Shown here: positions 23,567 to 50,413 of the stretch, piece after piece
Layout: the number at the start of each line of letters is the position of its first letter
Position numbering within the stretch: position 1 is the first letter of the stretch
Notes under the pieces: model-generated
The model's database searches: none
What the model was told of the DNA's origin: nothing
What the model saw: only the letters and a program-made list of their open reading frames with translations
NCBI GenBank assembly: GCA_041675045.1
Contig: JBAYUP010000001.1
Span: 24,094-88,093, forward strand
From: Minisyncoccota bacterium
GTDB taxonomy: Bacteria > Patescibacteriota > Minisyncoccia > Phycocordibacterales > UBA9973
DNA: 64,000 nucleotides
Direction of reading: 5' to 3'
Made by a program: the position numbers and the translations under genes

Positions 23567-23635
23567 TTTATAGACAATGTATAGGTATATTAGTATAATA
23601 CTAAAACAGATAATCTATATATTTTAAAAAGATTT

Positions 23636-24100: not shown

Positions 24101-24109
24101 TTACAATAT

Positions 24110-32372: not shown

Positions 32373-32822
32373 ATGAAGCATATTTTCCCTCTTTTTTCAC
32401 TTTTGTTTTCTTTTTTTATATTAATAATTACCCCAGCCAATACTCAAGCGGCAACACCTTCGCTATCTAAAAGCTTTGGGGGGAGAGTGTATCTCGCACC
32501 TATCCCAGGGATTACATGCAATGGAGCGGGAAGACTCATGCTTCTCAGTAGTAATGCGAACTCGATTTTAAGTACCGTTGGGTCACAAGGATCGATGAGC
32601 TCATCTGAAGCAAAGGGATTTGTTAAAAATCTTCATGGGGCACTACCAATATATGCGAGTAACCCACAAAAATCGCCAACGCCAGGCGGACAAATTCTAG
32701 GAAGAAAAAGTATTATCCCTGACATGCAAACATGCTACATACCAACTCCGGCAGGCCCTGTGTATATCCCTATACTAAAGACAGCTCCACTCACTAATTC
32801 AAATTACCAAGTTTCGCGTTAA
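32373..32822 (+). CDS. Secreted hypothetical protein (149 aa); first gene of the T4SS-like cluster
   Basis: Signal peptide MKHIFPLFSLLFSFFILIITPANTQA. An extended -10-like TGTATACTAT ends 8 nt before the ATG. Confidence 0.5.
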   Translation: MKHIFPLFSLLFSFFILIITPANTQAATPSLSKSFGGRVYLAPIPGITCNGAGRLMLLSSNANSILSTVGSQGSMSSSEAKGFVKNLHGALPIYASNPQKSPTPGGQILGRKSIIPDMQTCYIPTPAGPVYIPILKTAPLTNSNYQVSR

Positions 32823-32827
32823 TCTGT

Positions 32828-33721
32828 ATGCGTTTAAAAATTAAACGAGAATATCTACCGAGTGACGAATTCATAGCGAGAATTATTATTCTCGCGGTTG
32901 TTATTGGAATTCTCGTTGGACTCTATTATCTTGGTGGTTTTGTTATTAAGAAAATAAAAACGAGACAGTCAAAAGTAAACATCGCTGAACTTGTGACAAA
33001 AGACTCTAATAGAAATGATATCCCTGATTGGGAAGAATCATTGTGGGGACTCGATCCCACAAAAAATGGGGCGAAAAATAAAGAAATCATCACAGAAAAA
33101 AAGAAAGCCCTCGCGGAAGGTATTGATGGTGCAGGGAAGCCACTTACAGAAAGCGATAAAATGGCACGAGAGTTCTTTGCCCTTGTAACGTCTCTTCAAG
33201 AAAGTGGTAATTTAAATGAGGAATCCATTGGCCTTATTGCAGATGCTATTAGTGAAAAAGCTGTGGCAATACCAATCCCTAATATCTACACAAGTGATTC
33301 AATCAAAACAACGGCTACAAATTTAACATCAATAAAGACCTTCTATACTGCATTTAAAAAACTGGGGACAGCATACAATGACAGGGATATTGGAGAAGAG
33401 CTTATTTTTATCGCTCAAGGTGCCGATAACAATGACACTCAAGCTCTCTATGCAGCAAAAACAATCGCACAATCATACAAATCATTCGCCGAAGAACTAG
33501 TAAGAATCCCAGCAGTACCAACATCTCTTGCAAATCTTGTTGTTGAATTAGCGAATAATTACTACAAAACAGGTGCTTCAATAGAAGAAATGACGAAACT
33601 TGCCGACGATGAACTCGCTGGAATGAGAGGCCTCGTAAACTACAACCAATATTCAATAGCACTTGTTAAAAACCTAGAAACAATGAGAACTTTTTTCATC
33701 AGAAATGGTATACTAAAATAA
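32828..33721 (+). CDS. Membrane-anchored hypothetical protein (297 aa)
   Basis: N-terminal transmembrane helix IARIIILAVVIGILVGLYYLGGFVI. Confidence 0.5.
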   Translation: MRLKIKREYLPSDEFIARIIILAVVIGILVGLYYLGGFVIKKIKTRQSKVNIAELVTKDSNRNDIPDWEESLWGLDPTKNGAKNKEIITEKKKALAEGIDGAGKPLTESDKMAREFFALVTSLQESGNLNEESIGLIADAISEKAVAIPIPNIYTSDSIKTTATNLTSIKTFYTAFKKLGTAYNDRDIGEELIFIAQGADNNDTQALYAAKTIAQSYKSFAEELVRIPAVPTSLANLVVELANNYYKTGASIEEMTKLADDELAGMRGLVNYNQYSIALVKNLETMRTFFIRNGILK

Positions 33722-33728
33722 CATTAGC

Positions 33729-36500
33729 ATGAGAAAACACTTTGCCCACAACATCAAAGCATCGTTCACACTATGCACTCTAGTTGTTTTATTTCTCAAT
33801 ATCTCAATCGTGGAAGGAGCAACAGAAGCAGTGGATCCTCGAAAGGGAATTTATGTTGATGATTCATCTTTGTACAGAGCAAATTCAAAAAATATTGCTG
33901 ACTCAGGATTATTTACGACAGTCCCTGGGTGTAACAATATTGGAAATAAAGTACAGAAATCTATTGGTGGTATCTTAAACAACGACCCGACGAGTTTCGT
34001 GACTCTTGCTGATTCTATTGGAGACCTTACAGGAGATAATGTTACCACACAAGATATGGCAGCGAATTCTGCACTTAAGGATATTCTTAATTCTACAAAA
34101 GAAGACCAATTCCGTAGTGAATGTATGGACGGCATTGGATACCAACTCGCAAAAAAACAACTTGCGAGTATTACAAACAAAATTATCAGCGGGGCAGTAG
34201 TTGGAAATAATGGTGATTCAATGTTTAAAGATGAATCATCACTCCTAGAGAGTATTCAAAATAAAGAAATTTCACGCGTAGCAAAAACATTCGGCACATC
34301 TACAGACACGAATGCCTATCCATTTGGAAAAGAATATTCACGTGGACTCATCACTTCTACACGAGCCCAAAATAATTTTGAGGAATCAATGAAATCAGAT
34401 CTTTCTCAATATGGTGGAATACAGGGAGCTTCTAAAAATTTTAATTGGGATAAGTGGATGAATATTACTCAGAATGTTCAGAATAATTATCTCGGACACA
34501 CTGTTGCTGTCAGTCAGCATCTTACAGATTCAATAAATCAAAAAACTCAAGTCCAACGTGATGAATTAAATCAAAACAGTGGTTTTCTCTCACAAAAAAA
34601 ATGTGTTGAGTATTATCCTTCGACATCAAGTGGCACTATTGCCCCTGGAGGTGGGACATACAATACAGGACAAGGTGCATGTAAAAGATGGCAAGTGCTC
34701 ACACCAGGAAGTATTATTGCACAACAACTATTTGCTGTAGTGACTTCTCCTATTCGCCAACTCGAACTTGCTGATGGTGTCAACGAAACATTAAGTGGAG
34801 TATTCAATAAACTTGTTAATAAACTCGGGCTTCAGGGGTTATTCGGTGTTTCCTCATTTGCAACACGACAGGGTAGCTACACCGTAGGGGGAGATAGTAT
34901 TAGTTCATCATTCGGCTCATCAACTGGATTTGGTTTTGGATCAAGTTTCGGTAGCAGTACAGGTGACGGTGATGCAATTATCTCAGTCAACAGAGGTAAT
35001 GGATGGTACGAAGGAGATGAACCGTTTGACCTCACAAAAGACCTCGGCAACACCTACCTTCGTGAAAAACCAAAATACCTTGGCACATGGAACGCCTCAA
35101 CAAACAAGACAACCCCAACAGCAGAATCAGGAGAAGAAGCTACATCTCTTGCGCCAGGGATTGGAATAAAAAACACATATTATGTTGTCTCAACTGGAGG
35201 TAATACTGAAATAAACATCCCCGAAACTTGTTTTCCTGTTTTGTACGCAGACGGATCAACATCACAATGCTGGAAGCGAGGGAATATCCTTATTTTTGAT
35301 GGGGAAAGATGGCTCAAAGCTCATTATTTTAACGGGAGAAACGATGGTAGTGGATTCAAGGTAATCCCAGGCGAAAACGGAGAAGCAGAAAGTACTCTTG
35401 TTGATTTACTCAAAAGCCCACGACTTAAAATAATCGACAAAAAAGGTGTCATTCAGACACAGTACGATTATCTAAAGGCGATTAAAGCATCAATGCGAGA
35501 ATTACCTAATATCATGCCAGCTCTTGGTGAACTTGATTATTGCATTCCAGGACCAAACCCAAGCTGGTACGAGAGTGCGGAACTGGCGGGGGAAGCACTT
35601 AGTGGATACATTAGCAAGATACAAATTGACCCGAACACTCTTCAGATTATTGGCCCACCACCTGCACAATACAAAACACAATATTTTGGCTCGAAGCCAT
35701 GGAAACAATTAAATCCAAAGAAATTTGAAACACTCTTTCAAAACTATTTCGGTGTTGACCCTAATCAATTTGCCTCAACATTCATGAACTCAATTATGAG
35801 CACCACAGCTAGTGGTAATACTGGATTCAGTGGTAACATTGTGGGCGACATTGTAGGGGGACTTTTAGGAACTAATAATAGTAGCGGGCCAAGTCCATCA
35901 GAAATTGCATTTCAACAGGCATACGCAGAAGCACAAGAAATCCTTGAAGCAGAAAAAGAAGCAGCAATTACAATTATTGGAAATCAATTACAATCATACA
36001 AAGGAGCATCAGACGCAATCTATGGACAGGGTGGTGTTATGACAACAGAGCTTCTCATCAACCCCGACACAGAAGAAGCAACAGAAAATCCAAACTATCT
36101 CCCAATGGCGCAAGCAGGCATGGCACTTACGAGAGATATTCGTCTCTATGATGTAAATATTGATGAGGCAACACAAGACTACAAAGACCTCATTGATGAG
36201 AGTGTTGCAAATATTTACAAACTTAATCTTATTAAAACGAAAGTTGATAAGATTGTAAAAGCAGCTCAAGCACGTCGCTCAAAAGAACTTCCTGCTAACA
36301 CAATCCCAGACGATTGTTTGATGTATGAACAAATTAGTTATATTAATGGAGGGATAACAACAGGCGACCTAAACACAATAAATGGCGACTTAAGTGGTGG
36401 TGGAACAGGAGGAGGAGTCACAGGTGTGGGAGGTGGGGTAATTTATACTAATGGAACAGGAGGGGTAACAGGAGCTGGGGCTGGAGTAGGAGGACAATAA
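33729..36500 (+). CDS. Large secreted hypothetical protein (923 aa) with a Gly-rich C-terminal tail
   Basis: Signal peptide. C-terminus GGGTGGGVTGVGGGVIYTNGTGGVTGAGAGVGGQ. Confidence 0.6.
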   Translation: MRKHFAHNIKASFTLCTLVVLFLNISIVEGATEAVDPRKGIYVDDSSLYRANSKNIADSGLFTTVPGCNNIGNKVQKSIGGILNNDPTSFVTLADSIGDLTGDNVTTQDMAANSALKDILNSTKEDQFRSECMDGIGYQLAKKQLASITNKIISGAVVGNNGDSMFKDESSLLESIQNKEISRVAKTFGTSTDTNAYPFGKEYSRGLITSTRAQNNFEESMKSDLSQYGGIQGASKNFNWDKWMNITQNVQNNYLGHTVAVSQHLTDSINQKTQVQRDELNQNSGFLSQKKCVEYYPSTSSGTIAPGGGTYNTGQGACKRWQVLTPGSIIAQQLFAVVTSPIRQLELADGVNETLSGVFNKLVNKLGLQGLFGVSSFATRQGSYTVGGDSISSSFGSSTGFGFGSSFGSSTGDGDAIISVNRGNGWYEGDEPFDLTKDLGNTYLREKPKYLGTWNASTNKTTPTAESGEEATSLAPGIGIKNTYYVVSTGGNTEINIPETCFPVLYADGSTSQCWKRGNILIFDGERWLKAHYFNGRNDGSGFKVIPGENGEAESTLVDLLKSPRLKIIDKKGVIQTQYDYLKAIKASMRELPNIMPALGELDYCIPGPNPSWYESAELAGEALSGYISKIQIDPNTLQIIGPPPAQYKTQYFGSKPWKQLNPKKFETLFQNYFGVDPNQFASTFMNSIMSTTASGNTGFSGNIVGDIVGGLLGTNNSSGPSPSEIAFQQAYAEAQEILEAEKEAAITIIGNQLQSYKGASDAIYGQGGVMTTELLINPDTEEATENPNYLPMAQAGMALTRDIRLYDVNIDEATQDYKDLIDESVANIYKLNLIKTKVDKIVKAAQARRSKELPANTIPDDCLMYEQISYINGGITTGDLNTINGDLSGGGTGGGVTGVGGGVIYTNGTGGVTGAGAGVGGQ

Positions 36501-36501
36501 A

Positions 36502-38001
36502 ATGGAAACAAATTCACACAAAAGAAGTAGGGCATTTATTATAACGTTCATCGCGGTTATTATTCTTTTAATTGTTGGGTACTTCCTTCTCTTCAAAGAT
36601 GGTGGTGTGTTTAGCACAAAGGGAACTTCAAGTGAACAAAAGAGCTTCTTTCCCCTCCTTGGTTCATCAAAGAAAAAAGCAGAGAAAGTTGAAACTCCAA
36701 CTGCACCAGATGGAACACCAATCAACACAGAGACAACAGTCGACGGCGCAGTGCCACTTTTTAATCCAGTCCCTGGCCCAAACGGAAAAGAACCACGTGT
36801 AACTCTCTCTGCAACACCAAAAATCCTTGATGCAAAAGGCGGAAATGTAAAACTAACATGGAAAGGAGAGAATGTGTCCTCATGTATCCCGAGTTGGACA
36901 GGTAAGCGAATTGCTCAAACAAGCGGAACATCAAACGAACTCACTGTTAAGAAAACGAGACTATTTTCAATTGCATGTACAAACGGAATCACAACAACAG
37001 GAGCCACTGTTCAGGTATCTGTAGTGGGATCTTCAACGCTTGGTATCGCACTTTTTGCGAATCCAGATGTTCTCGATAGCGCCGGAAAAGTAAAACTCTC
37101 ATGGACAAGTAATAATTCAGTCAAAGCATGTACTCCGAGTTGGACTAATCGAAAAAATGACTCTGAGGGAGATGCGACAGTCACGGTGAATGAATCAAAA
37201 ACATTTTCAATCAACTGTACTGACGGCACAACATTTGAAATTGCCGAAGTTGATGTCATTGTCACAGAATTTTACTCAAACATTAGAGAATGTAATGACG
37301 GACTTGATAACGATGGAGACAAAACAACAGATATGGCCGACTCAAGCTGTCATACTGATTTTGATGCTACAAACGAGGCAACGTACAACCCTCGAATTAG
37401 TCCTGAATCAAGATCTCCAGTATCTCAAGCAGACGACCATTGTAAAGCACTCGATGAAAACCCTCTGAAGTTTACTGACGCAGAAAAAAGAGAGCTCGAC
37501 AAACTCCTCCGTCAATTCTACAGAGTGGCACCTAAACTCAAGACACAAGATGATGTCCTTGCTGAATATGGGGCTCGGGAAGGATATATTGATTTATACA
37601 AAGAAGCGCGAGACCTCACTCAGCAATGTTTTGGACAACGTTATCCTGTAGAGAATAATGTAAACAGGGTTGCTGTTGGTGCGACACCAAACTACACTGG
37701 CCCACAAGAAACAAAAACAAATCCATACTACCAGCCAGCAGGAATCATAAATTCACCAACATATATTACTGAGGCCTACCAAGATTCCAAGTTTAAAAAA
37801 TGGGAAAACAAGGTTATCCAACTTCACTTAGATGCTATTGCAAAACTAGATGTGAAAATCATAAATGCGACGACAAATTCCAAAAAGGCACTCTTTACTG
37901 CACTTCGTAATTATGAACAAAACAAACTTAATAACTTCACAGACCTTGCACGACGAAGAAATGAGTTCATCCGCATTCAAGAAATTCTCCAAATTTGGTA
38001 G
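36502..38001 (+). CDS. Membrane-anchored protein with tandem Ig-like Cys-pair repeats (499 aa)
   Basis: N-terminal transmembrane helix, two ~100-aa repeats (..KLTWKGENVSSCIPSW.. / ..KLSWTSNNSVKACTPSW..), and a Cys-rich C-terminal domain. Confidence 0.6.
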   Translation: METNSHKRSRAFIITFIAVIILLIVGYFLLFKDGGVFSTKGTSSEQKSFFPLLGSSKKKAEKVETPTAPDGTPINTETTVDGAVPLFNPVPGPNGKEPRVTLSATPKILDAKGGNVKLTWKGENVSSCIPSWTGKRIAQTSGTSNELTVKKTRLFSIACTNGITTTGATVQVSVVGSSTLGIALFANPDVLDSAGKVKLSWTSNNSVKACTPSWTNRKNDSEGDATVTVNESKTFSINCTDGTTFEIAEVDVIVTEFYSNIRECNDGLDNDGDKTTDMADSSCHTDFDATNEATYNPRISPESRSPVSQADDHCKALDENPLKFTDAEKRELDKLLRQFYRVAPKLKTQDDVLAEYGAREGYIDLYKEARDLTQQCFGQRYPVENNVNRVAVGATPNYTGPQETKTNPYYQPAGIINSPTYITEAYQDSKFKKWENKVIQLHLDAIAKLDVKIINATTNSKKALFTALRNYEQNKLNNFTDLARRRNEFIRIQEILQIW

Positions 38002-38047
38002 TTTTCCTCTGCAAGAAGGATGAAAAGGGGATTTCTTATTTAAAAAT

Positions 38048-38056
38048 TGGTATAAT
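38048..38056 (+). promoter_or_regulatory. Extended -10 TGGTATAAT immediately upstream of leader element B
   Basis: It ends 10 nt before the 5' arm of the inverted repeat, so a transcript would begin about at the arm. Confidence 0.45.
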
Positions 38057-38066
38057 AATCGAGTGA

Positions 38067-38216
38067 ATCCCGTTAGAGATTTTTTATGTCATATATGTAA
38101 CGGGAGGTGCATTAGCATACTTATTAAAATTATTGTATTTATTTAAAATGTATACGCCCCATGCAAAAATTGGATAATTTTAGAAAAAAAAACGATGGGG
38201 CTATCTCTAACGGGAT
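38067..38216 (+). promoter_or_regulatory. Inverted-repeat leader element, copy B: 5' arm ATCCCGTTAGAGAT (38067-38080), 3' arm ATCTCTAACGGGAT (38203-38216); the ATG at 38215 overlaps the 3' arm
   Basis: Perfect 14-bp inverted repeat around ~122 bp of AT-rich sequence. An internal partial arm GTAACGGGAGG lies at 38097-38107. Confidence 0.7.
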
Positions 38217-41142
38217 GAAGAAAATTCTACCGTATATATTTTTTATTGCGATATGTGTGAACATATTCACGCCTTTTTCTGCCATCCAATCAACTCCTCT
38301 CGTTGCTGAGGCAGCTCTTGATACAACCCTTGCTGGATATCAAAATGCATTCAACAAAATTAAAAGTGGTGTCACCCTAAATCAATCAGCAGTAACGTCA
38401 GCTGGTGGGATTATTGCTGATTTTCATATTGTTCTTGATACAGGATTAGCGTTGGGGGCAAACACAGAAGATATATATAATCACGTAGAAGCTCAAGGTA
38501 GAAATTTTGGAATCGGAGACACCGGCACTAATTTATACAGCACAAATGCTTTTGTTCTTGTTGTGAAAGACGCACTAACTGGACAAGTGGGTTTTGTGGA
38601 CGTCACACCTCGACTAATGATTGATGGTTCAAATAAAAGCTTGGCGGACAAAAGACCAAATGGGCCAGTCCGAAGCGAAACGGATGTAAGTATCAGCACA
38701 AGTCAATTCCCCCAGCTTACTCCTGGTAAAGACTACACCGCGACACTTTACTACCAAGCAGCTGGTGGAATAGGAAGTGGAGAGGGTAAAGGATATGGTG
38801 AATCAATACCAGGGTTATCTTCAAACAAAGACTACTTTGCAATTACCAGCCCGACCCCCTTCAAGACAGCAACCCCAACAAGTGGTGGCGGGACAGGAGT
38901 TGAAGGAACGCTCGGTACTGGTAAATCGACAGTAGTTGATTCCCAGGCTTCTCTTGATCCAATGCCAGGGTGTTCGATACTCGGAATGGGAGACGAGAAT
39001 GGATCAATTGTTGGATGCGCAGCTCAAATAATATATTACGTTATCTTTGTTCCAACATCATATCTCTTTGCGCTTGCCGGTCAATTTTTCGACTGGACAT
39101 TTGCATACTCTATTAGCGATGAATCATATCGAATTCCTTTTGTTGTTCAGGGGTGGGGAATCCTCCGTGATTTCGTTAACATGTTCTTTATCTTTGTTTT
39201 GCTCTATATTGCATTTCGTACAATACTCGGTGTTCATGGTGCAAAAACAAAAGACTTAATTATAAATGTCATCATTATTGGTCTTTTAATAAACTTTAGT
39301 TTATTTACAACACAAGTTATTGTTGATGCTTCAAATATTTTAGCGAGAGTATTCTATAGCGATGATGCCATTAGACTTACAGAGGGTCAGAATCGTGGAG
39401 CACTTGATGCAGCAGGAACAACAGCGGGTCCAAATGGGGAAATCCAATTATCTGCTGCCCTCATAGATAAGGTCAACCCCCAAAATCTTATCTTAAATTC
39501 AAAAAAGGTTAATGACTTCGGAACAACAGGAAATGATGTCGCCCAAAATAATAACGAAGATAGCGCAAACAGCATTGGAGCTGGGTCATTTATCTTAATC
39601 ACTATCCTTGCTATCGCTATTAATATCGTTGGCCTAATAACATTCCTCTCTGTTGGACTTATTTTCGTTGCTCGCGTAATCGGACTTTGGTTTGCGATGA
39701 TTTTTGCACCTATTGCATTCTTTAGTTATACCGTGCCGAGTCTAGCGAATAACAAAATATTTGGCATCCATCACTGGATTGAAGAGCTTTTAAAAATGGC
39801 ATTCTTGGCACCAATATTTATATTCTTCTTGTATCTTATCTTGCAATTCCTTGAGGGTCTTAATTTTATAAACCAAGGAGACCAAACAGGGGTGAAGTGG
39901 GTTATCGCTATCGTTGTACCGTTTATTTTCATAATGGTTCTTTTGCAACAAGCAAAAAGTATCGCACAAAAACTCTCAGGGGAACTCGGACAAAGAATTA
40001 CAGGGGCGCTCTCCACTGTTGGTGGTGTTGGACTTGGACTTGCAACAGGTGGCGCTGCCCTTGCAATGAGAGGGTCAGTTGGTAGAATCATGAATAAGCT
40101 AAACACAAATGACACACTAAATAATTGGGCCTCTGGAAAAACAGCGAGTGGTAAGGCAATGAGCGGAGGGCTAGGCTCATGGGCACTTCAAAGAGCGGCT
40201 ATTCTAGGAAAGAAAACTACTACTGCGGGAGCTAAGGGAAGTTTTGATTTCCGACAAACAGGATTAGCTGGTGGTATGTCTGGTGCACTTGGTGTCGATA
40301 TGGGCAAATACACAAACTATGTCGGACTTGGGACAAAAAGTGGGCTTGGCGGATATGCAAATGCACAGGCAAAAAAGATTGAGAAAGAAGAAACATTTGC
40401 AAAAAGTCTGGGATACGACCACGCAAAAGATCATGCCTTACAAGAAAAAATTGATGCTCGTAAAAAAGCAATTACTGATGCTGAAAAAATTCGTGATATG
40501 GCAAAAGCAACACTTACTGCAGATCCAAATAATGCTGAATCCAAAAAATCTTACGCGACAGCTTTGGCAAATGTTACCGCACTTAAATCTGGAGGCATGT
40601 ATGTAAATGATGCTGGAATTAAGCTAAACATAAAAGAAAGTCTCGCTGATTTTGAAAAAGCACAGGCAACTAACAAAACTGGTCGTGAACGAGAATTTTA
40701 TCTCTATAAACGACGACAATCTGGAAAAATCTACAACGAGAGTCATGGATTAAAACGTGACAGTGAAGATAACATAACTTCATTTGGCCACCCAGTATCA
40801 AGTGGAGCACAAGCAGGTAAACAATTTGCCAAGGAATTTGTTGAAGGATTTGGAAAAGGAGCAGTTGCAGGTGGTGCTGTGGGTATGTGGGCTGGACCCG
40901 CAGGTGCAGTAGCAGGTGCTGGTGCTGGTGGATTATTTATGGCAGTTCGAAATGTAGTTAATTACAGTGGAACAACCAATAGAAAGATTGGAGAAGCCCA
41001 CAATCCAAAACCAGGAAAATTTGAAGATTCTTATAAGCCAGGTTCAGCGCCGGCTCCGTCTGGGGGACACGACGATCACGGAGCTGGGCATGACGATCAT
41101 GGGGGAGGACACGACGATCACGGAGGTGGAGGGCATCACTAA
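38215..41142 (+). CDS. Large polytopic membrane protein (975 aa): signal peptide, soluble N-domain, at least 8 transmembrane helices, Gly/Ala-rich and His-rich C-terminus; candidate VirB6/TrbL/PrgH-like channel subunit
   Basis: Topology and position upstream of the VirB3-like and VirB4 genes. Start moved to the ATG at 38215 (MKKILPYIFFIAI signal peptide) because the six-frame start at 38161 lies inside the leader element. Assignment by synteny and topology only. Confidence 0.5.
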   Translation: MKKILPYIFFIAICVNIFTPFSAIQSTPLVAEAALDTTLAGYQNAFNKIKSGVTLNQSAVTSAGGIIADFHIVLDTGLALGANTEDIYNHVEAQGRNFGIGDTGTNLYSTNAFVLVVKDALTGQVGFVDVTPRLMIDGSNKSLADKRPNGPVRSETDVSISTSQFPQLTPGKDYTATLYYQAAGGIGSGEGKGYGESIPGLSSNKDYFAITSPTPFKTATPTSGGGTGVEGTLGTGKSTVVDSQASLDPMPGCSILGMGDENGSIVGCAAQIIYYVIFVPTSYLFALAGQFFDWTFAYSISDESYRIPFVVQGWGILRDFVNMFFIFVLLYIAFRTILGVHGAKTKDLIINVIIIGLLINFSLFTTQVIVDASNILARVFYSDDAIRLTEGQNRGALDAAGTTAGPNGEIQLSAALIDKVNPQNLILNSKKVNDFGTTGNDVAQNNNEDSANSIGAGSFILITILAIAINIVGLITFLSVGLIFVARVIGLWFAMIFAPIAFFSYTVPSLANNKIFGIHHWIEELLKMAFLAPIFIFFLYLILQFLEGLNFINQGDQTGVKWVIAIVVPFIFIMVLLQQAKSIAQKLSGELGQRITGALSTVGGVGLGLATGGAALAMRGSVGRIMNKLNTNDTLNNWASGKTASGKAMSGGLGSWALQRAAILGKKTTTAGAKGSFDFRQTGLAGGMSGALGVDMGKYTNYVGLGTKSGLGGYANAQAKKIEKEETFAKSLGYDHAKDHALQEKIDARKKAITDAEKIRDMAKATLTADPNNAESKKSYATALANVTALKSGGMYVNDAGIKLNIKESLADFEKAQATNKTGREREFYLYKRRQSGKIYNESHGLKRDSEDNITSFGHPVSSGAQAGKQFAKEFVEGFGKGAVAGGAVGMWAGPAGAVAGAGAGGLFMAVRNVVNYSGTTNRKIGEAHNPKPGKFEDSYKPGSAPAPSGGHDDHGAGHDDHGGGHDDHGGGGHH
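41064..41139 (+). repeat. Tandem 21-bp coding repeat (CACGACGATCACGGAGNTGGG x3) encoding GHDDHGx repeats at the C-terminus of the VirB6-like protein
   Basis: Seen directly in the sequence: ...GGHDDHGAGHDDHGGGHDDHGGGGHH*. Confidence 0.7.
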
Positions 41143-41153
41143 AAAAATAAATT

Positions 41154-41939: not shown

Positions 41940-41959
41940 ACGCGTGATACAATAGATAC

Positions 41960-42370
41960 ATGCAATTCAAAGTTCCACAATTCATAGATATTGAGGACAA
42001 ACTCTTTGGACCATTTACCTTCCGTCAGTTTGCCTATCTGGCAGGTGGCGCTGGGATGATATTTGTTCTCTATAAAGTCCTTCCATTTTGGATTGCTGTT
42101 ATTTTGATAATTCCCGTTGCTGGACTTGCACTTGCACTTACATTTTATAGAATCAACAACAAGCCTTTTATTTATTACTTACAAGCAGGTATTTCCTACG
42201 CTATCGGAGATAAATTATATGTATGGAAACAACGACTTGTAAAACCAACACTCAAAAAAGAAGAGCCCACTCCGACACCAAAAACAAATACCGTACCGAT
42301 GATGTCTGGAAGTAAACTTTCCGACCTTGCATGGAGTTTAGATGTAGAAACGAAAGAAAATAAAGAATAA
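41960..42370 (+). CDS. Small two-transmembrane-helix protein, VirB3/PrgI-like candidate
   Basis: 136 aa, two hydrophobic helices (FAYLAGGAGMIFVLYKVLPFWIAVILIIPVAGLALALTF), immediately upstream of VirB4 as in the conserved VirB3-VirB4 pair. Confidence 0.45.
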   Translation: MQFKVPQFIDIEDKLFGPFTFRQFAYLAGGAGMIFVLYKVLPFWIAVILIIPVAGLALALTFYRINNKPFIYYLQAGISYAIGDKLYVWKQRLVKPTLKKEEPTPTPKTNTVPMMSGSKLSDLAWSLDVETKENKE

Positions 42371-42451
42371 AAATGTTATACTTTATACTGTATCATTCAT
42401 CCATAATTAGTAACCTGCCTACCGGCAGGTAGGTTCGTAATTATTTTTCCT

Positions 42452-43090
42452 ATGGCACTAGACGCTCGAGCTACACAAGAATTTGTTCCAATCAAAGAAG
42501 TTCGCGATGGAATCATCGTCTTAAAAGACGGGGGACTGCGAGCTGTTTTGATTGCTTCTTCAATCAATCTATCTCTTAAATCATCAGACGAGCAAGTAGC
42601 GATCATTAATCAATTCCAGAATTTCTTAAACGGACTTGATTTCCCGACACAAATTGTTATTCAGTCACGACGTCTTGATATCCGACCATACCTATTGTTA
42701 CTTGAAAATCGCATCAAAGAACAGGTTGAGCCCCTTATAAAAATTCAAACTCGAGAATATATCAGTTTTATTCGTTCTTTTACAGACGAAGTAAACATCA
42801 TGACAAAAACATTCTTCGTTGTAGTGCCCTATACTCCAACAATCTTAAATACAGGGGGTGGGATAATCGACGGATTACTTGGTGGCAATAAACAGAAAAA
42901 TACTGGCAAACAAGGAGATGTCGCAGATTTTGAAGAAAAGAGATCTCAGCTTGATCAACGTGTTAACGTTATCACTGGTGGTCTTGGTGGTCTTGGTATT
43001 CGTAGTTCACAACTTAAAACAGAAGAGGTTGTTGAGTTATTCTACAAAACATTTAATCCTGGTGACATAAGTCAGGGTATTCAATTATAG
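42452..43090 (+). CDS. VirB4/TrbE/CagE family ATPase, N-terminal domain encoded as a separate ORF (212 aa)
   Basis: N-terminal pattern FVPIKEVRDGIIVLKDGGLRAVLIASSINLSLKS matches the characteristic VirB4 N-terminus (..DGSl.avl.v.G..f.l). Stop TAG at 43088-43090, followed by leader element C. Confidence 0.6.
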   Translation: MALDARATQEFVPIKEVRDGIIVLKDGGLRAVLIASSINLSLKSSDEQVAIINQFQNFLNGLDFPTQIVIQSRRLDIRPYLLLLENRIKEQVEPLIKIQTREYISFIRSFTDEVNIMTKTFFVVVPYTPTILNTGGGIIDGLLGGNKQKNTGKQGDVADFEEKRSQLDQRVNVITGGLGGLGIRSSQLKTEEVVELFYKTFNPGDISQGIQL

Positions 43091-43098
43091 GTATATGA

Positions 43099-43222
43099 AT
43101 CCCGTTAGAAGTCGCGAACGCGTTATAATATAATGGATAGAAGTAATATGAAAATAAACCCAACAATTAAAAAAATAATTTCAGTAAGCTGCGAAAAGAT
43201 CGCGCTCTACTTCTAACGGGAT
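43099..43222 (+). promoter_or_regulatory. Inverted-repeat leader element, copy C: 5' arm ATCCCGTTAGAAGT (43099-43112), 3' arm ACTTCTAACGGGAT (43209-43222); the ATG at 43221 overlaps the 3' arm
   Basis: Perfect 14-bp inverted repeat around ~96 bp, sitting exactly between the two VirB4 ORFs. TATAAT at 43124-43129 inside the element. Confidence 0.7.
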
Positions 43223-45062
43223 GAATATATTTTCATCATTTTTTGGCAAAAAAGAAACACAAACAACAGGACAATCTGGCCCGGCTGTTATGCCGGTACT
43301 TCCAACCGAAATCTACCGCGCAGCAACACTAGAACTGCAGGATATTATTGCACCTTCAGCTCTTCAAATTACGCCGAAGGCACTCAACCTGGGAGATAAA
43401 ATCACACGAACATTTTTCGTGATTTCCTATCCAAGATTTTTAACAGATAATTGGTTTTCACCAATTGTTAACCTTGATAAAGTTTTTGATGTATCAATTA
43501 ATATTCATCCTATTGAAACAGGGGATATTCTTCGCTCATTCCAGAAAAAGGTTGCTGAAGTACAAAGTCAAATTTCAATACGTGAATCAAAAGGTCTCGT
43601 TCGTGATCCAATGCTTGATACTGCATATCGCGATCTTGAAGCGCTTCGTGATAGCTTGATGCAAGCCCAAGAAAAAATGTTTGATGTTGGGTTATACATC
43701 ACCGTTTACGCCGACAATGATTCTGATTTATTTAAAATTGAAAGTGAAATCAAGTCATTACTCGAATCAAAGCTTGTTTATTTGAAACCAGCACTCTTCC
43801 AGCAAGGGGAGGCATTTAAAAGTGTTATTCCGCTCGGCATGGATATTCTTGGTATCCATCAAAAACTTAACACGGAGCCACTTTCAAGCTTGTTCCCATT
43901 TGTATCATTCGACCTTACTTCAGATAAAGGTATTTTGTATGGAGTAAATCGCCACAACTCAAGTTTGATTATTTTCGACCGCTTTTCACTTCCGAACTAT
44001 AATTCTATTACTTTTGCGACATCTGGTGCTGGTAAATCATATGCAACAAAACTTGAAGTTATCCGAACACTTATGTTTGATACTGAAGTAATTGTTATTG
44101 ACCCAGAACGCGAATATGAATATCTAGCTGAAGCAATGGGCGGAAGATATTTCAACATTGCTCTTTCTTCTGATCACCATATCAATCCATTTGATTTACC
44201 TATCCCAAGTCCTGATGAGACAGGAGCGGATGTGCTTCGCTCAAATACCATTAACCTTGTCGGACTATTCCGTATCATGCTTGGTGGGCTCACCCCAGAA
44301 GAAGATTCAATCATCGACCGTGCCATTACTGAAACATACGCGATGAAGGACATTACACCTAATTCCAACTTTGCAAACATTGAACCACCACTTCTTACTG
44401 ATTTTGAAATGGTTCTTGCTGGCATGGAGGGAAGTGAGTCAGTTATTCAACGTCTTGCGAAATACACTCGTGGGTCATGGTCATCATTCCTTAACCAGCC
44501 ATCAAACGTAGATATTAATAGAAAATTTGTTGTTTTCTCGGTACGCGATATGGAAGACGAACTGAAACCAGTGGCAATGTATATCGTAACTCACTATATC
44601 TGGAACGCTGTTCGCAAAAACATTAAAAAACGTCTCCTTGTGGTAGATGAGGCATGGTGGATGATGAAATCAGAAGACACTGCGTCGTTCCTTTATTCAA
44701 TCGCAAAACGAGGCCGAAAATATTACCTTGGACTTGCTACCATCACTCAAGACGTGGGTGACTTCATGAAAAGCCCGTATGGTATCCCGATTGTTACAAA
44801 CTCATCAATCCAGCTTCTACTAAAACAATCCCCATCAACAGTTGATACCCTCCAAAAAACCTTTAATTTAACAGACGAAGAGAAATACCTCCTCTTGGAA
44901 GCAAATGTAGGAGAGGGAATATTCTTTGCTGGTTTGAAACACGTAGCTGTTAAAACAGTTGCCTCATATACCGAAGATCAGATTATTACCTCTGACCCAT
45001 CTCAAATCCTAGCAATCAAAAAAGCTCGAGATGAACTCATTGCCTCTGGTGGTGTAAAATAG
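43221..45062 (+). CDS. VirB4/TrbE/CagE family type IV secretion ATPase, central and C-terminal ATPase portion (613 aa)
   Basis: Walker A FATSGAGKSYATK, Walker B LLVVDEAWWMM, conserved ..GLATITQD.. region. Together with 42452..43090 it totals 825 aa, the normal VirB4 length. Confidence 0.85.
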   Translation: MNIFSSFFGKKETQTTGQSGPAVMPVLPTEIYRAATLELQDIIAPSALQITPKALNLGDKITRTFFVISYPRFLTDNWFSPIVNLDKVFDVSINIHPIETGDILRSFQKKVAEVQSQISIRESKGLVRDPMLDTAYRDLEALRDSLMQAQEKMFDVGLYITVYADNDSDLFKIESEIKSLLESKLVYLKPALFQQGEAFKSVIPLGMDILGIHQKLNTEPLSSLFPFVSFDLTSDKGILYGVNRHNSSLIIFDRFSLPNYNSITFATSGAGKSYATKLEVIRTLMFDTEVIVIDPEREYEYLAEAMGGRYFNIALSSDHHINPFDLPIPSPDETGADVLRSNTINLVGLFRIMLGGLTPEEDSIIDRAITETYAMKDITPNSNFANIEPPLLTDFEMVLAGMEGSESVIQRLAKYTRGSWSSFLNQPSNVDINRKFVVFSVRDMEDELKPVAMYIVTHYIWNAVRKNIKKRLLVVDEAWWMMKSEDTASFLYSIAKRGRKYYLGLATITQDVGDFMKSPYGIPIVTNSSIQLLLKQSPSTVDTLQKTFNLTDEEKYLLLEANVGEGIFFAGLKHVAVKTVASYTEDQIITSDPSQILAIKKARDELIASGGVK

Positions 45063-45090
45063 TAATACGCTCATTGTTTCCACCTCGTAA

Positions 45091-46101
45091 TTGTCATATA
45101 ATAAAAGGGTGAATACTCGCATTCTCGGAATACAGAATATCATCTTCGGACTTTTATTTGTCTGTGTGTTTTTTGGACTACAGGTACACGCTGAAGATAT
45201 CGCAAGTGCGGATATTGAGGTAAACGTAACGCCACAAAACCCTGAACCGTACCAAGACGTTACTGTTGATGTAGCAAGCTTTGCTACTGATATGAATACT
45301 GCATATATAGAATGGCTTGATGCGGGGAAAATTGTTCTCTCTGGAACAGGAAGGACAGCATACACAACAAAAACAGGTGGGCCAGATAGTCCTACAAACA
45401 TAACAGTCAGCGTAACTCCAGCAGGCGGGGGAGGAAAGGTTACAAAAAAGATTACTATTTACTCTTCGGATATTGAAGTATTCTGGGAAGCCATTGATGG
45501 ATATACTCCGCCATTTTACAGAGGAAAGTCTTTTTCTTCATCAGAAGGTAGAGTAAAAGTTGTTGCAATACCGAACACGACGACAGGAAAAGGAAAGACG
45601 GGAAACATTGCATACTCATGGAGAGAAAACGATACGGCCGTACCAAGTGCGGGTGGATACAAAAAAGATTCTTTTATATATCAAAACGATGTAATAAACT
45701 CAAGCGACTCAATCTCAGTAAGTGCATCATCGACTGACGGACTATACAACGCATCAAAAACTATTTCAATTCCCGTTGTAAAACCACAAATAATTTTCTA
45801 TAAAAAATCACCGAACACTGGGACAGAATATAGCCAAGCACTCTTTAATGAAAGTTCTCTTACTAATGAAGTAACGACCATCGTCGCAGAGCCTTACTTT
45901 TTGAACATACGAGGAGCAAGGTCTTCAGTGTACAACCATGACTGGGAAATAAACGGGGAAGCCGTTTCAACTCCATCACGATCACGCGAATTAACCATCA
46001 AAACAGAATCACAAGGTGGGTATGCAACAATTCGTCTCACCATAGAGGGGATTGATTCACTTTTCCAAAAAATAACTAATACTCTTAAAATAAATCTATG
46101 A
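45091..46101 (+). CDS. Secreted hypothetical protein with beta-rich Ig-like repeats (336 aa)
   Basis: Signal peptide IFGLLFVCVFFGLQVHA; repetitive beta-strand-like segments. Confidence 0.55.
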   Translation: MSYNKRVNTRILGIQNIIFGLLFVCVFFGLQVHAEDIASADIEVNVTPQNPEPYQDVTVDVASFATDMNTAYIEWLDAGKIVLSGTGRTAYTTKTGGPDSPTNITVSVTPAGGGGKVTKKITIYSSDIEVFWEAIDGYTPPFYRGKSFSSSEGRVKVVAIPNTTTGKGKTGNIAYSWRENDTAVPSAGGYKKDSFIYQNDVINSSDSISVSASSTDGLYNASKTISIPVVKPQIIFYKKSPNTGTEYSQALFNESSLTNEVTTIVAEPYFLNIRGARSSVYNHDWEINGEAVSTPSRSRELTIKTESQGGYATIRLTIEGIDSLFQKITNTLKINL

Positions 46102-47315
46102 GAAAAAAATACGTTATAAAAGTTGCACAGGTGCTCGTTCTCTTCTTGTGTGTAATACAATTCACGGGAATCACCACAGAACACGCAGGTGCTGCGGGGA
46201 AGTGGTATTACCAAAACCCATTTGCAACTGATGGTAAAACGTACTTCGGTCCATACGATACAAAAGAAGCGTGTGTTAATGGAGCAAAAGGTACATCATT
46301 TGTAAATTCATGTGTAGAAGATACAGGGAATATTCCTGCATCAAAAATACATTTTGTAGGAGTTCCAAATGATGGAACAACAGGAACACGTACATACACT
46401 CCACCCTCTTCAGATACAGACTACAAGCTCATAAGCCCTCAAACAGAGACCCCTGTATATAAAAAAACGTATCGATTACTTGCTCCAATTGGAGACCTAA
46501 CATGTATTGAGAATGGGGAGGGTGAGTCAAATCCTGGGTGTGTTACTGGAAATGTAGGTACTTATCTAAATATTATTTTTAGAATCGCCATTGGACTCGC
46601 AGCTGCTCTCGCAGTAGTGATGATTGTTGTATATTCTATTGCTTATATGGGCAATGAATCAGTTTTTGGCAAGAACGAAGCCAAAAGCAATATCCTCTCA
46701 TCAATCGGTGGACTTCTCATCGCACTTGGTGCATACGCCCTTCTCGCAAGCATTAATCCGGATCTCGTGGGAACAAGTGGAGCAACAATAGATCAAGTAG
46801 AAGCACAAGTAAGCCCCGATCAACCTCAAGTAGTTGGAAGTGGCGGAAAATATGTTGGTACTAATTATGTAAAAGGCCAGAGTTGGCCATCAGACAGTGT
46901 TGACCGTTTAACACTTTCCTCACTTGGTATTAATGTTAGTACTCCACCATGTACAACCGTCGGGCAAACAGGGTGTACAACGGTATTTCAACTTAATACT
47001 GCATTTGTCTCAAAGTTAAAAAATAACTGTAAAAATTGTGATATTGTCATCACCGAGGGAACAGGATTCTGGAAACATGCCGCAAGTACCAAGAAAATAC
47101 ACTATCCCGGGGGATGGACTGTTGACCTAAGAAAAACAACAACCTTGACTAATTACATACACAGCTTGCCTAAAGTACATAAAGCAAAATGGTTCAAAGG
47201 GGCAGGAGCAAACTGTTACTCAACTAGAGATGGACTTGGTATTATTGAAGAAGAAGACCATTTCCACGCATTTAGTTTGACGGGTCAATGTAACGCAAAT
47301 AAACAAGGAATGTAA
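46098..47315 (+). CDS. Membrane protein with a signal peptide, a Cys-pair N-domain, a two-helix hydrophobic hairpin and a Cys-pair C-domain (405 aa); possible VirB2/TrbC-pilin-like or VirB8-like component
   Basis: Central hairpin LNIIFRIAIGLAAALAVVMIVVYSIAYM ... ILSSIGGLLIALGAYALLASI resembles a pilin-type two-helix core. The assignment is speculative. Confidence 0.45.
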   Translation: MRKKYVIKVAQVLVLFLCVIQFTGITTEHAGAAGKWYYQNPFATDGKTYFGPYDTKEACVNGAKGTSFVNSCVEDTGNIPASKIHFVGVPNDGTTGTRTYTPPSSDTDYKLISPQTETPVYKKTYRLLAPIGDLTCIENGEGESNPGCVTGNVGTYLNIIFRIAIGLAAALAVVMIVVYSIAYMGNESVFGKNEAKSNILSSIGGLLIALGAYALLASINPDLVGTSGATIDQVEAQVSPDQPQVVGSGGKYVGTNYVKGQSWPSDSVDRLTLSSLGINVSTPPCTTVGQTGCTTVFQLNTAFVSKLKNNCKNCDIVITEGTGFWKHAASTKKIHYPGGWTVDLRKTTTLTNYIHSLPKVHKAKWFKGAGANCYSTRDGLGIIEEEDHFHAFSLTGQCNANKQGM

Positions 47316-47316
47316 T

Positions 47317-48579
47317 ATGCCACGAAAAACCCTTATCATTTTTATAATAGCTTTTATCCTCGCTGGACTTATTGGCTGGGGTGTATATTCATACCTGACA
47401 GCTCCAACACAAACAGTGGGCACAGAAGAATCTGGTACAGGGGGATTCCTATCTTTTCTTAACCCATTCGCAAAAGACAGCTCTCAAACAGGAAATGGAA
47501 GTGATTTACTTGGGGGTGGAAACGGCACCCAAGAAACATCATCTCCATTCAGAAAGATTACCGAGTTCGCAGTTGCTGGAGGAATATTTCTTAATGACAC
47601 ACGAAGTGTTGCTATACCTGAAACAATAGATGCCTCTGGTACAGTGATTCCCCAAACTGAAACATTTGAAGTTGCGCCATCGCTTCGATATGTTGATAAA
47701 ACAACAGGACATATTAACCAAATGTATCTTGATACAAAAATCGCCGGCAAAATTTCAAACGTAACAATTCCCGCAATTCATGAAGTAATCTTCGGCAATA
47801 ACGCCCGCACGGCTATTTATAGATACCTTGATCAAGATGGAGCAACTATCAACAGTTTTATGGCGACACTGGGAGCAGAAGCAGGGGAATTCCTCCAAGA
47901 TAATATCGTGGATATAAGCATCTCTCCTGATGGAACAAAAATATTCTACCTTGTAAAAGATTCATCTGGAATTAAAGGATTTATTCGAGGATTTGAAGAA
48001 ACAAAAACAACACAGATATGGACATCATCATATAGTGAATGGGTTTCCCAATGGGCAACACCAAATACTATCTTTCTCACAACAAAATCATCAGGATATA
48101 TTGACGGTGCAGTGTTTTCTCTTGATGTGACAAAAGGAACATTTAAAAAAATCCTAGGAGGCGTACGAGGGCTCACCACACTCGTTGACCCAACAGGCAC
48201 ACGATTGCTTTATGGAGTTAACACTGACCTTGGAATGAAAATGGGAATACTAAACATCACAGAAAAAACAGTTGTTGACCTCAACGTAAATGGCTTACCA
48301 GAAAAATGTTTGTGGAATAAGAGTGGTACAAATTTTTATTGTGCAGTACCAGAGTCAATGACGGGGGGAGTATATCCTGACGTATGGTACCAAGGCGTAG
48401 CATCATTTAATGATCGTTTTATAAAGGGTAACGCCTTCTCTGGAGAACTCATTTATTTTGCTGATTCAAACAACGACACTCTTGTAGACGCAACAAAACT
48501 TTCTTTTGATATAAGCGAAAAAACACTCTTCTTCATAAACAAAAAGGACTCCACATTGTGGGCCCTTTTGGTTGAGTAA
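47317..48579 (+). CDS. N-terminally anchored periplasmic protein with beta-propeller-like repeats (420 aa)
   Basis: Transmembrane helix LIIFIIAFILAGLIGWGVYSYL; repeated ..DGTK.FY.. and ..DG.. strand motifs reminiscent of TolB-like propellers. Confidence 0.5.
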   Translation: MPRKTLIIFIIAFILAGLIGWGVYSYLTAPTQTVGTEESGTGGFLSFLNPFAKDSSQTGNGSDLLGGGNGTQETSSPFRKITEFAVAGGIFLNDTRSVAIPETIDASGTVIPQTETFEVAPSLRYVDKTTGHINQMYLDTKIAGKISNVTIPAIHEVIFGNNARTAIYRYLDQDGATINSFMATLGAEAGEFLQDNIVDISISPDGTKIFYLVKDSSGIKGFIRGFEETKTTQIWTSSYSEWVSQWATPNTIFLTTKSSGYIDGAVFSLDVTKGTFKKILGGVRGLTTLVDPTGTRLLYGVNTDLGMKMGILNITEKTVVDLNVNGLPEKCLWNKSGTNFYCAVPESMTGGVYPDVWYQGVASFNDRFIKGNAFSGELIYFADSNNDTLVDATKLSFDISEKTLFFINKKDSTLWALLVE

Positions 48580-50070: not shown

Positions 50071-50400
50071 TTATTTCACAAAATGAGCTTTTTGAAGGAG
50101 ATTAGTAATTTCTTTTGTTATTTCAGAGAAATCTACGGTTTTGGCCTCTTTTTTAAAGAAAAAAATACCAGAAAGAGAAGGGAGGGTGATGTTTTTACGA
50201 AGCGCATTATAACCTTTTCTTCGAAGGCTATTCCGGTCATGCGCCTTTTTAAAAACGGCTTTTGGCACAACACATGCATAACGCGGGCCAGCATTATCAG
50301 CCAAAAAACGAAAAGAAAAAAGCGGGGAATGGACTGTTTTTCCGTCTTTCATAATAGACATAAACACATCCTTGGTAACCCGCTTTTTCTTTTGGAGCAT
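50071..50400 (-). CDS. rnpA: Ribonuclease P protein component RnpA
   Basis: 109 aa, basic, with the RNR-like motif ..HDRNSLRRKGYNALR... Start moved to the ATG at 50400; the longer six-frame ORF to 50493 overlaps rpmH out of frame. Confidence 0.8.
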   Translation of the reverse strand: MLQKKKRVTKDVFMSIMKDGKTVHSPLFSFRFLADNAGPRYACVVPKAVFKKAHDRNSLRRKGYNALRKNITLPSLSGIFFFKKEAKTVDFSEITKEITNLLQKAHFVK

Positions 50401-50413
50401 TGATTTATATAGT

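Follow-up and report, generated by a model that had tools for sequence, protein, structure and literature searches.

In Southlakia epibionticum the secretion system of type IV (T4SS) encoded by SEML1_0006-0019 is essential for epibiotic growth (Wang 2023; PMC10633639). It resembles the conjugation systems of Gram-positive bacteria but has pilins, and it is without a coupling protein or a relaxase (PMC10633639). A survey of 3,035 genomes (Quinonero-Coronel 2025; PMC12102498) detected VirB4 in ∼80%, and these proteins formed a clade of Patescibacteria within MPF_FATA. The commonest companion of VirB4 was TrsD; PrgI/VirB3, VirB2-like pilins and VirB6 (few detected) were encoded nearby, relaxases were nearly absent, and VirB1 homologues accompanied virB4 for the most part in Paceibacteria, where, as in Microgenomatia, the locus lies close to dnaA, dnaN, rnpA, ksgA and rpmH (PMC12102498). 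A 2025 FEMS review regards the Patescibacteria T4SSs as a new T4SS subgroup and also describes that of S. epibionticum as essential for epibiotic growth (PMC12857230). Here we describe a co-directional block of 13 open reading frames (ORFs), all on the + strand in the ORF listing, at positions 32373-48579 of a 64-kb stretch of DNA from a Minisyncoccota bacterium (64,000 nucleotides; 'the window' hereafter). The block is very probably the chromosomal T4SS of the ultra-small Patescibacteria (CPR), carried by a Paceibacteria genome and sited beside the replication origin. Its most likely role is to pass macromolecules between epibiont and host upon contact, and not to conjugate.

Every ORF of the block was searched against Pfam, NCBIfam and PHROGs, and matches were limited to PrgI, TrsD and VirB4. 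The genes considered first are the following (aa, amino acids; TM, transmembrane; HMM, hidden Markov model).

43221-45062, + strand: VirB4-family ATPase of 613 aa with central and P-loop domains (NCBIfam, Pfam, PrgJ similarity)
42452-43090, + strand: TrsD-like protein of 212 aa, homologous to the VirB4 N-domain (NCBIfam HMMs, orthologue labels)
41960-42370, + strand: PrgI/VirB3-like protein of 136 aa with two TM helices (Pfam PF12666)
38215-41142, + strand: polytopic membrane protein of 975 aa, candidate VirB6-like subunit (hydropathy, family search, AF2/Foldseek)
46098-47315, + strand: 405-aa chimera of a pilin core and a putative wall hydrolase (orthologue Pfam scans, alignment motif, fold ranking)

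Profile matches show the 613-aa ORF to be a VirB4 ATPase of the monoderm (MPF_FATA, CD1110-like) type. It scores 372 bits against NCBIfam conju_CD1110 (cutoff 325; model positions 183-732 of 752), matches Pfam P-loop_TraG with E = 1e-25 and aligns with residues 228-772 of pCF10 PrgJ at 25% identity over 555 aa (E = 1e-41). The Walker A (TSGAGKS) and Walker B (LLVVDEAW) motifs, read from the translation, are both intact. The 212-aa ORF matches the N-terminal part of NCBIfam VirB4_plasma (E = 2.4e-9), TrsD/TraD (E = 5e-6) and positions 2-74 of the CD1110 model, all below the curated cutoffs, and its orthologues are labelled PF26593 (TraC-like). BLASTP of this ORF against PrgJ returned nothing, and its link to VirB4 N-domains is made through HMMs only. 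The preliminary description of this DNA had recognized a VirB4 N-domain and a VirB4 ATPase, both of which the HMMs bear out, and had placed a small mobile-element copy (element C, below) between them. This element is not the cause of the split: 63 of 63 related loci have two distinct ORFs, a TrsD-like one of 210-240 aa and one of 586-632 aa for the ATPase, spaced by a median of 4 nt. The closest relative, whose polytopic protein is 81% identical, has an uninterrupted junction that reads ...TTATAGGTATATGAGTATATTTTC. The idea that element C split a once-single virB4 was also rejected because the upstream stop codon precedes the element, which is an insertion into an existing junction. The 136-aa protein matches PF12666 (PrgI) at 37.7 bits (cutoff 27; E = 3e-9) and TcpE at E = 1e-4, and its orthologues carry the PrgI label, in keeping with its earlier designation as a two-helix VirB3/PrgI-like protein. 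T4SS profile matches thus extend beyond VirB4 to PrgI, TrsD and, via orthologues, T4SS_pilin/TrbC. With VirB4, PrgI and a large polytopic subunit all present, the Gram-positive-type (MPF_FATA-like) cluster proposed at the outset stands.

The 975-aa protein consists of a signal or anchor segment, a ∼230-aa extracellular domain, ∼7-8 TM helices (residues ∼260-580) and a ∼370-aa cytoplasmic tail, an architecture that fits the 'extended VirB6' class described in PMC12857230. We place its start at 38215, as previously suggested, since the orthologues begin with MKK there and the 18 extra codons of the alternative 993-aa call lie inside element B. The family is large and confined to Paceibacteria: 287 matches at E ≤ 1e-5 were all from Patescibacteria where named, save for a handful of contigs that had evidently been mis-binned. 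For the polytopic core, AlphaFold2 gave a model of moderate quality (pLDDT 61, pTM 0.54). When it was compared with 350,542 PDB chains by Foldseek, the top two matches were TrwI/VirB6 of R388 (8rt9_F and 8rtd_L; E = 0.047 and 0.12, probability 1.0, TM-score 0.53-0.56 on the target), and the next matches reached ≤0.36 on the target. This suggestive fold match makes it likely, but not demonstrated, that the protein is a VirB6-like channel subunit. Of the VirB6/PrgH-like label given earlier, the structural comparison with VirB6 therefore sustains a modest resemblance in fold; a sequence relation to VirB6, TrbL or PrgH was not found. A VirB6 slot filled by a protein that profiles do not see would explain why surveys report VirB6 as scarce. 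Some relatives bear PF19590 as a precomputed label, but the Pfam scan did not return this family. At 41062-41129 the tail ends in three 21-nt repeats encoding GGHDDHG (HDDHGG repeats). The majority consensus of 28 relatives also has a His/Gly-rich end (HGGGGHH), which suggests a conserved metal-binding tail.

The 405-aa protein is composed, in order, of a signal peptide, a ∼120-aa extracellular N-domain, a VirB2/TrbC-like two-helix core (residues ∼150-220) and a 165-aa C-domain. Pfam scans covered this protein and the orthologues that occupy its position in 35 further Paceibacteria loci, 36 proteins altogether. T4SS_pilin was detected in 31 of the 36 and TrbC/VirB2 in 7, and the two-helix core is invariant in their alignment; by these comparisons the core is shown to be a VirB2-like T4SS pilin core. 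What accompanies the core varies. A C-terminal VanY domain, different from the C-domain of the window protein, is present in 12 of the 36, Amidase_2, NlpC/P60 and Amidase_5 in 3 each, YkuD in 2 and an SLT-type lysozyme in 1-2. One locus (L084) has neighbouring but distinct genes for the pilin (246 aa) and for VanY (127 aa).

The C-domain itself has no Pfam match, and VanY and Peptidase_M15 were not matched even at E ≤ 10 in the window protein and its two closest relatives; phmmer against the PDB found nothing, and Foldseek of a C-domain model against the PDB gave no significant match. A word-indexed search returned only three relatives, so an exhaustive search was needed, and this yielded 324 representative relatives. 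T4SS_pilin lies N-terminal to the domain in 36 of 38 proteins (37 sampled relatives and the window protein). Among 24 diverse sequences H88, H96, D104, H149 and H151 are invariant, E146 is nearly so, and two Cys pairs are conserved. The resulting pattern, H-x7-D ... E-x2-H-x-H, is that of the LAS zinc peptidases. Taken together, the motif, the fold ranking and the position shared with VanY are best explained if the domain is a peptidoglycan peptidase, in particular a diverged, putative zinc peptidase of the LAS type (VanY/hedgehog fold). It is very likely, then, that the cluster has a cell-wall hydrolase and that it is fused to the pilin core. The statement in the preliminary description that the block has no such hydrolase is very probably wrong, given this domain and the VanY, Amidase_2, NlpC/P60, YkuD and SLT domains of the orthologues. 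The same description had offered the two-helix-core protein as a pilin or VirB8-like candidate; the former is correct, and the fused LAS-type domain had been missed. The signal peptide, a lysine-rich loop between the helices and the Cys pairs suggest that both globular domains face outward.

In the literature on Patescibacteria T4SSs we found no mention of a pilin-hydrolase fusion or of an exchange of enzymatic heads, and in the literature searched no VirB2-VirB1 chimera is described for any T4SS. A wall hydrolase fused to a pilin core, with a head that is exchanged between species, offers a testable handle on how epibionts pass through the cell wall. We put forward, tentatively and with more doubt than confidence, that the 'pilin' of the Paceibacteria T4SS is a modular, weapon-like subunit. 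VirB4 and the VirB6-like protein would handle its VirB2-type hairpin, its exchangeable peptidoglycan-cleaving head (in the window a LAS-like domain not classified before) would breach the host wall at the contact site, and the choice of head would track the chemistry of the host wall.

The structure of this protein bears on an alternative in which the block is a machine for assembling a pilus or adhesin, with no translocated substrate, and VirB4 and the VirB6-like protein only erect a fibre or anchor attachment proteins. Such a machine would account for the VirB2-like pilin core, for the six conserved secreted or anchored proteins of the block and for the missing coupling protein, and Patescibacteria T4SSs are credited with the potential to elaborate conjugative pili (PMC12857230). 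However, the sole pilin-like gene of the block encodes globular domains of ∼120 and ∼165 aa on either side of the helical hairpin, which is hard to reconcile with helical packing of the VirB2 type. Moreover, the window encodes a separate type IV pilus component (PilB, 60267-61967), and this pilus is the established adhesion device in relatives (PMC12857230). We consider a pure assembly machine unlikely, and prefer a T4SS that transfers macromolecules on contact with the host.

As the preliminary description had noted for the block, neither a relaxase nor VirD4 is encoded there. This was borne out and extended: relaxase, VirD4, TraG and TcpA families are absent from the scanned ORFs of the 64 kb (all of at least 500 aa and most of at least 120 aa), so the system is probably not conjugative. 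A PrgB-type adhesin was detected neither in the block nor in the rest of the 64 kb. The lack of a relaxase and a coupling protein would also fit a DNA or nucleotide importer, like archaeal Ced or Helicobacter ComB, which would pull host DNA into a nucleotide-auxotrophic epibiont and export nothing. An import role is the hypothesis of PMC12102498, and comM, ruvB and ruvC lie within the same 64 kb. There is also a weak, partial similarity to CedB, but at 29.6 bits (cutoff 700) this is far below threshold, as is that to CedD (13 bits, cutoff 600), and both are confined to the P-loop segment. No CedA-like or ComB-specific component was found, and fusion of a pilin with a wall hydrolase is not known from importers. 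S. epibionticum needs its T4SS but can do without comEC-dependent DNA uptake (PMC12857230), which separates the T4SS from the ComEC pathway and leaves room for another route of import. On balance an importer seems improbable to us, about as much so as the assembly machine, and contact-dependent transfer between epibiont and host is favoured over it.

The block lies between uvrD (29536-31467) and ksgA/rsmA (31470-32339) on its 5' side and jag, yidC and rnpA (50071-50493), which are on the opposite strand and convergent, on its 3' side. Beyond rnpA follow dnaA (50728-52080) and dnaN (52293-53390), so that the co-directional block outlined in the preliminary description is real and has well-defined neighbours. 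The names ksgA, rnpA, dnaA and dnaN were read from the translations, dnaA being confirmed in an orthologous locus only; these genes are Pfam-labelled in related loci and indicate a location on the oriC side, as in the Paceibacteria T4SS. The GC content across the block (0.38-0.41) equals that of the rest of the window and shows no anomaly. Other ORFs of the window are housekeeping genes, encoding PNPase, the CCA-adding enzyme, ComM, PBP1, RuvB, RuvC, PilB and a class Ib aminoacyl-tRNA synthetase (TyrRS/TrpRS type). Matching GC, housekeeping surroundings and origin genes identify the region as a chromosomal origin region and neither a plasmid nor an island.

A scan of one genome per species gave 80 loci that encode the polytopic protein, and every window ORF was compared by tblastn with 83 related loci. 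In essentially every locus long enough, the order is uvrD-ksgA-(149)-297-923-499-polytopic-261-PrgI-TrsD-VirB4-336-405-420-jag-yidC-rnpA, where numbers are protein lengths and the 149-aa ORF is the sole poorly conserved member. The synteny uvrD-ksgA-[13 genes]-jag-yidC-rnpA was found in ∼50 of the 83 loci, all from Patescibacteria and mostly labelled Paceibacteria or Nomurabacteria. The arrangement is thus not due to chance, and intact ORFs in a fixed order at one chromosomal site in ∼50 species-level genomes point to long purifying selection and vertical descent. These data largely refute the idea that the block is what decay has left of an integrated conjugative element or a plasmid, deprived of relaxase and coupling protein and unable to function as a whole. 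Its VirB4, PrgI and TrsD families do come from monoderm conjugative elements, small mobile elements have inserted at two of its start codons, and a tyrosine recombinase is encoded 24 kb upstream. However, all 13 ORFs are intact and their order between ksgA and jag is kept, the GC content is unremarkable, the block borders have no integrase or att-like repeats, and the T4SS of a cultivated relative is essential (PMC10633639). We regard decay as very improbable; the Paceibacteria version of the Patescibacteria T4SS is instead a fixed 13-gene module.

In T4SSs generally, VirB3 tethers VirB4, which drives pilin extraction and assembly, VirB6 is an inner-membrane platform with VirB2 binding sites, and VirB1 or PrgK opens the wall. 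By analogy, the 975-aa protein would form a VirB6-like platform or channel in the cytoplasmic membrane, to which PrgI would tether TrsD and VirB4, the whole constituting a cytoplasmic-membrane engine. By hydrolysing ATP, VirB4 would pull the two-helix pilin-like protein out of the membrane and build a surface structure. The pilin-hydrolase chimera would be a client of this engine and supply local wall lysis, its enzyme domain cutting peptidoglycan and allowing passage through the wall of the cell itself, that of the host or both. The extracellular part that contacts the host would be built by the six conserved secreted or anchored proteins.

The remaining proteins of the block are listed here in gene order.

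32373-32822, + strand: 149-aa protein with a signal-like N-terminal segment (no Pfam, NCBIfam or PHROG match)
32828-33721, + strand: 297-aa conserved accessory protein with one N-terminal membrane helix (no family match)
33729-36500, + strand: 923-aa secreted protein with conserved Cys and a Gly-rich tail (from the alignment)
36502-38001, + strand: 499-aa N-terminally anchored surface protein (241-1324 aa among relatives)
41154-41939, + strand: soluble protein of 261 aa, probably cytoplasmic, encoded between the VirB6-like gene and PrgI
45091-46101, + strand: 336-aa N-terminally anchored extracellular protein (59% mean column identity)
47317-48579, + strand: 420-aa N-terminally anchored, conserved extracellular protein, last gene of the block

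The 149-aa protein is the least conserved of the block, being detected by tblastn in 6 of 83 loci; a gene for a protein of 133-165 aa fills its slot in two other loci (L003 and L085). The 297-aa protein has counterparts at its position in 59 loci. Of the conserved extracellular components the 923-aa protein, with orthologues in 62 loci, is the largest, and its family alignment shows invariant Cys residues and motifs such as ELDYCIPGPNPNW; no Pfam match was obtained in 25 orthologues, nor any PDB sequence match for the family. The 499-aa protein gave a weak, sub-threshold match to an acidic double-disulfide repeat in the NCBIfam search. The 261-aa protein, present in 68 loci and shorter than its orthologues (median 351 aa), has no family or PDB match, and the same is true of the 336-aa family and of the 420-aa family (47 orthologues, 52% mean column identity). 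Identities of this order show that the accessory proteins are genuine and under constraint. Profiles of the 336-, 420- and 261-aa families found no PDB chain of VirB8, TraM, TcpC or PrgL. Seven conserved, unannotated proteins of the module are candidate parts of the extracellular apparatus.

In block order the ORFs encode 149, 297, 923, 499, 993/975, 261, 136, 212, 613, 336, 405 and 420 aa, and neighbours are spaced by 0-28 nt or overlap slightly, save for three larger gaps: 38001-38215 (element B), 42370-42452 (a terminator-like hairpin) and 43090-43221 (element C). A scan for sigma-70 promoters in the block gave no more hits than in shuffled sequence. The features in and related to these gaps are as follows.

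42412-42435, + strand: terminator- or attenuator-like GC hairpin with a T-rich tail in the PrgI-TrsD gap (consensus match only)
12683-12799: element A, with termini TCCCGTTAGA...TCTAACGGG
38068-38214, + strand: element B, 147-nt palindromic mobile-element copy, with termini TCCCGTTAGA...TCTAACGGG
43100-43220, + strand: element C, 121-nt palindromic mobile-element copy at the virB4 start codon

The hairpin at 42412-42435 is the best terminator-like site of the region and a possible internal attenuator of the block. Elements A, B and C share their termini, and each ends exactly at a start codon. Element B is flanked by GTGAA and ATGAA, the right flank being the start codon of the polytopic gene, and it is also present in the 81%-identical relative (L001/L002). 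Element C is flanked by duplicated ATGAA (43095-43099 and 43221-43225), and its empty site is found in L001, a close relative: GGTATATGAGTATATTTTC. The elements fold far better than shuffled sequence (z = -4.6 for element C RNA). A scan for the termini found at least 120 metagenomic copies of the family, whose members measure ∼117-150 nt. Among the matches listed, 120 of 128 copies could be oriented with the right end forming ATG, and this ATG opens an ORF of at least 60 codons in 105 of 120, compared with 10 of 240 control frames. The flanks, ATGR to the left of A-TCCCG...CGGG-AT and GRA to its right, are consistent with a 5-bp ATGRA duplication; as we read it, the element can persist at start codons since the ORF is restored by the duplicated bases. 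The interiors are highly variable. Stem pairs adjoining the fixed termini covary: in three of them both partners differ in 21-25 of 53 copies, and no pair is broken more than twice. Rfam at gathering thresholds identified four tRNAs only and nothing for elements A-C. A resemblance to integron attC sites was considered and rejected, since the GTT/AAC core order is reversed relative to the attC consensus.

Longer elements with the same termini occur in relatives (278 nt in L010, 15521-15798; L041, 12923-13200; L047, 15588-15865; and L014, 12303-12580; 275 nt in L189, 22-296). They encode an 84-aa GIY-YIG protein of the UPF0213 type (E = 7.6e-9 to PDB 1zg2), the stop codon of which falls within the terminal repeat on the right. 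This longer form is probably the autonomous parent, a small mobile element of the GIY-YIG kind, from which we take the short, non-autonomous copies to derive. Three of the 278-nt elements, in three other genomes, occupy the same TrsD-VirB4 junction as element C, and diverged copies of ∼120 nt are found at this junction in L028, L050/L051 and L056; judged by these copies, the junction looks like an insertion hotspot. A widespread hairpin family that sits exactly on start codons in tiny genomes, and of which some members encode a GIY-YIG nuclease, is possibly of independent interest. Other insertions were seen in the locus L084, which has an IS200-type Y1 transposase gene between uvrD and ksgA (1353-2030) and a gene for a 99-aa '23S rRNA intervening sequence protein' between PrgI and TrsD (14592-14891). 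Small selfish genes thus appear to accumulate in the intergenic joints of the conserved cluster.

Several points weigh against the identification of the block as a working Patescibacteria T4SS with a role in contact-dependent transfer. The function is extrapolated from one Saccharibacteria strain to Paceibacteria. The VirB6 assignment rests on a Foldseek E-value of 0.047 with a model of pLDDT 61; Pfam and NCBIfam searches of the 975-aa protein, Pfam searches of 27 relatives and a profile of 28 polytopic-protein sequences searched against PDB sequences found no VirB6, TrbL or PrgH, and hhalign of the polytopic core with pCF10 PrgH gave a probability of 0.15%, i.e. no relation. The pilin core of the window protein matches T4SS_pilin with E = 0.01 and 16.3 bits, below the Pfam cutoff. 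No VirB8-like protein was identified in the block by PDB profile searches or in the rest of the 64 kb, and 7 of the 13 block proteins are without an assignable fold or role. Finally, where one of the palindromic elements is inserted, the AUG of the downstream gene is buried in a 14-18-bp stem without a Shine-Dalgarno sequence. With the start codons of the VirB6-like and VirB4 genes in such strong hairpins, their expression in this genome is not assured.

Some neighbouring genes of the window may be connected with the system. Just 5' of uvrD, at 20274-28441, four co-directional ORFs (819, 224, 154 and 1443 aa) have no family match. The 1443-aa protein has a Gly/Tyr/Asn-rich tail that resembles that of the 923-aa protein, and a 1433-aa counterpart is encoded at the same place in L001. 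The four may be extra surface proteins linked to the T4SS. On the - strand at 18476-20147, 12 kb 5' of the cluster, there are genes for a 431-aa protein with LysM-LysM-Peptidase_M23 domains and for a 127-aa PG_binding_1 protein. The former could be a second wall-remodelling enzyme for the T4SS, as M23 and LysM domains occur on VirB1-like proteins in the 2025 survey (PMC12102498). The ATPase PilB (60267-61967, - strand) is of the type IV pilus type and ComM is encoded at 14161-15729 in the same 64 kb, which places type IV pilus/competence machinery, separate from the T4SS, near the origin as well. Elsewhere, tRNA-Gly TCC/GCC genes (2243-2325 and 4424-4506) form an inverted pair of 83 nt, 76% complementary and 2.1 kb apart. 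The 545-aa ORF of the CCA-adding enzyme, as called from 4660, shares its first codons with a tRNA-Arg gene (4654-4726); the enzyme gene must therefore really start further downstream.

Among classical systems, the Prg/Pcf system of Enterococcus pCF10 (MPF_FATA; PrgH-PrgI-PrgJ-PrgK-PrgL) shares with the window the order polytopic protein, PrgI, VirB4, wall hydrolase, the PrgI family itself and a monoderm architecture without outer-membrane core proteins. The window differs in being without PcfC (VirD4), a relaxase and the PrgB adhesin, in the split of VirB4 into TrsD and an ATPase, and in the extra soluble protein between the polytopic gene and PrgI. Its polytopic protein has 975 aa, PrgH 266 aa, and the two are not alignable. 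Unlike pCF10, the locus is chromosomal and vertically inherited, and it encodes a VirB2-like pilin core, which is absent from Gram-positive conjugation systems (PMC12857230). The Trs system of staphylococcal pGO1/pSK41 (TrsC-TrsD-TrsE), the only classical subclass with a separate TrsD (PMC12102498), likewise has a TrsD related to the VirB4 N-terminus just 5' of the VirB4 gene. pGO1 has no recognizable VirB6 homologue (PMC12102498) and, unlike the window, belongs to the conjugative plasmids and encodes both a relaxase and a coupling protein.

The C-domain of the 405-aa protein is like the LAS zinc peptidases (VanY/VanX/MepA/LdcB) in its H...H-x7-D...E-x2-H-x-H motif, and orthologous positions hold bona fide VanY; like PrgK, it is encoded downstream of virB4. 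It is unlike the LAS peptidases in giving no Pfam VanY or M15 match and in being carried by a pilin-type hairpin, not by a single anchor helix. VirB1 and PrgK themselves are glycosidases or CHAP enzymes and not LAS peptidases.

The closest counterpart is the Patescibacteria-clade T4SS. The window has its VirB4 with a separate TrsD ORF, PrgI/VirB3, a candidate polytopic VirB6 and a VirB2-like pilin, is without a nearby relaxase or coupling protein, and adjoins dnaA, dnaN, rnpA and ksgA. Unlike that system, it has one pilin-like gene in place of an array of 2-11 small pilins, the pilin is fused to a domain of the wall-hydrolase type, the VirB6 candidate is invisible to sequence profiles, and seven further conserved genes have no counterpart named in PMC12102498 or PMC10633639. 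Otherwise the cluster fits the published Patescibacteria T4SS point by point and is a system already known. The cluster itself was therefore to be expected, and its recognition amounts to the independent rediscovery, by reading of the DNA, of a real and important system.

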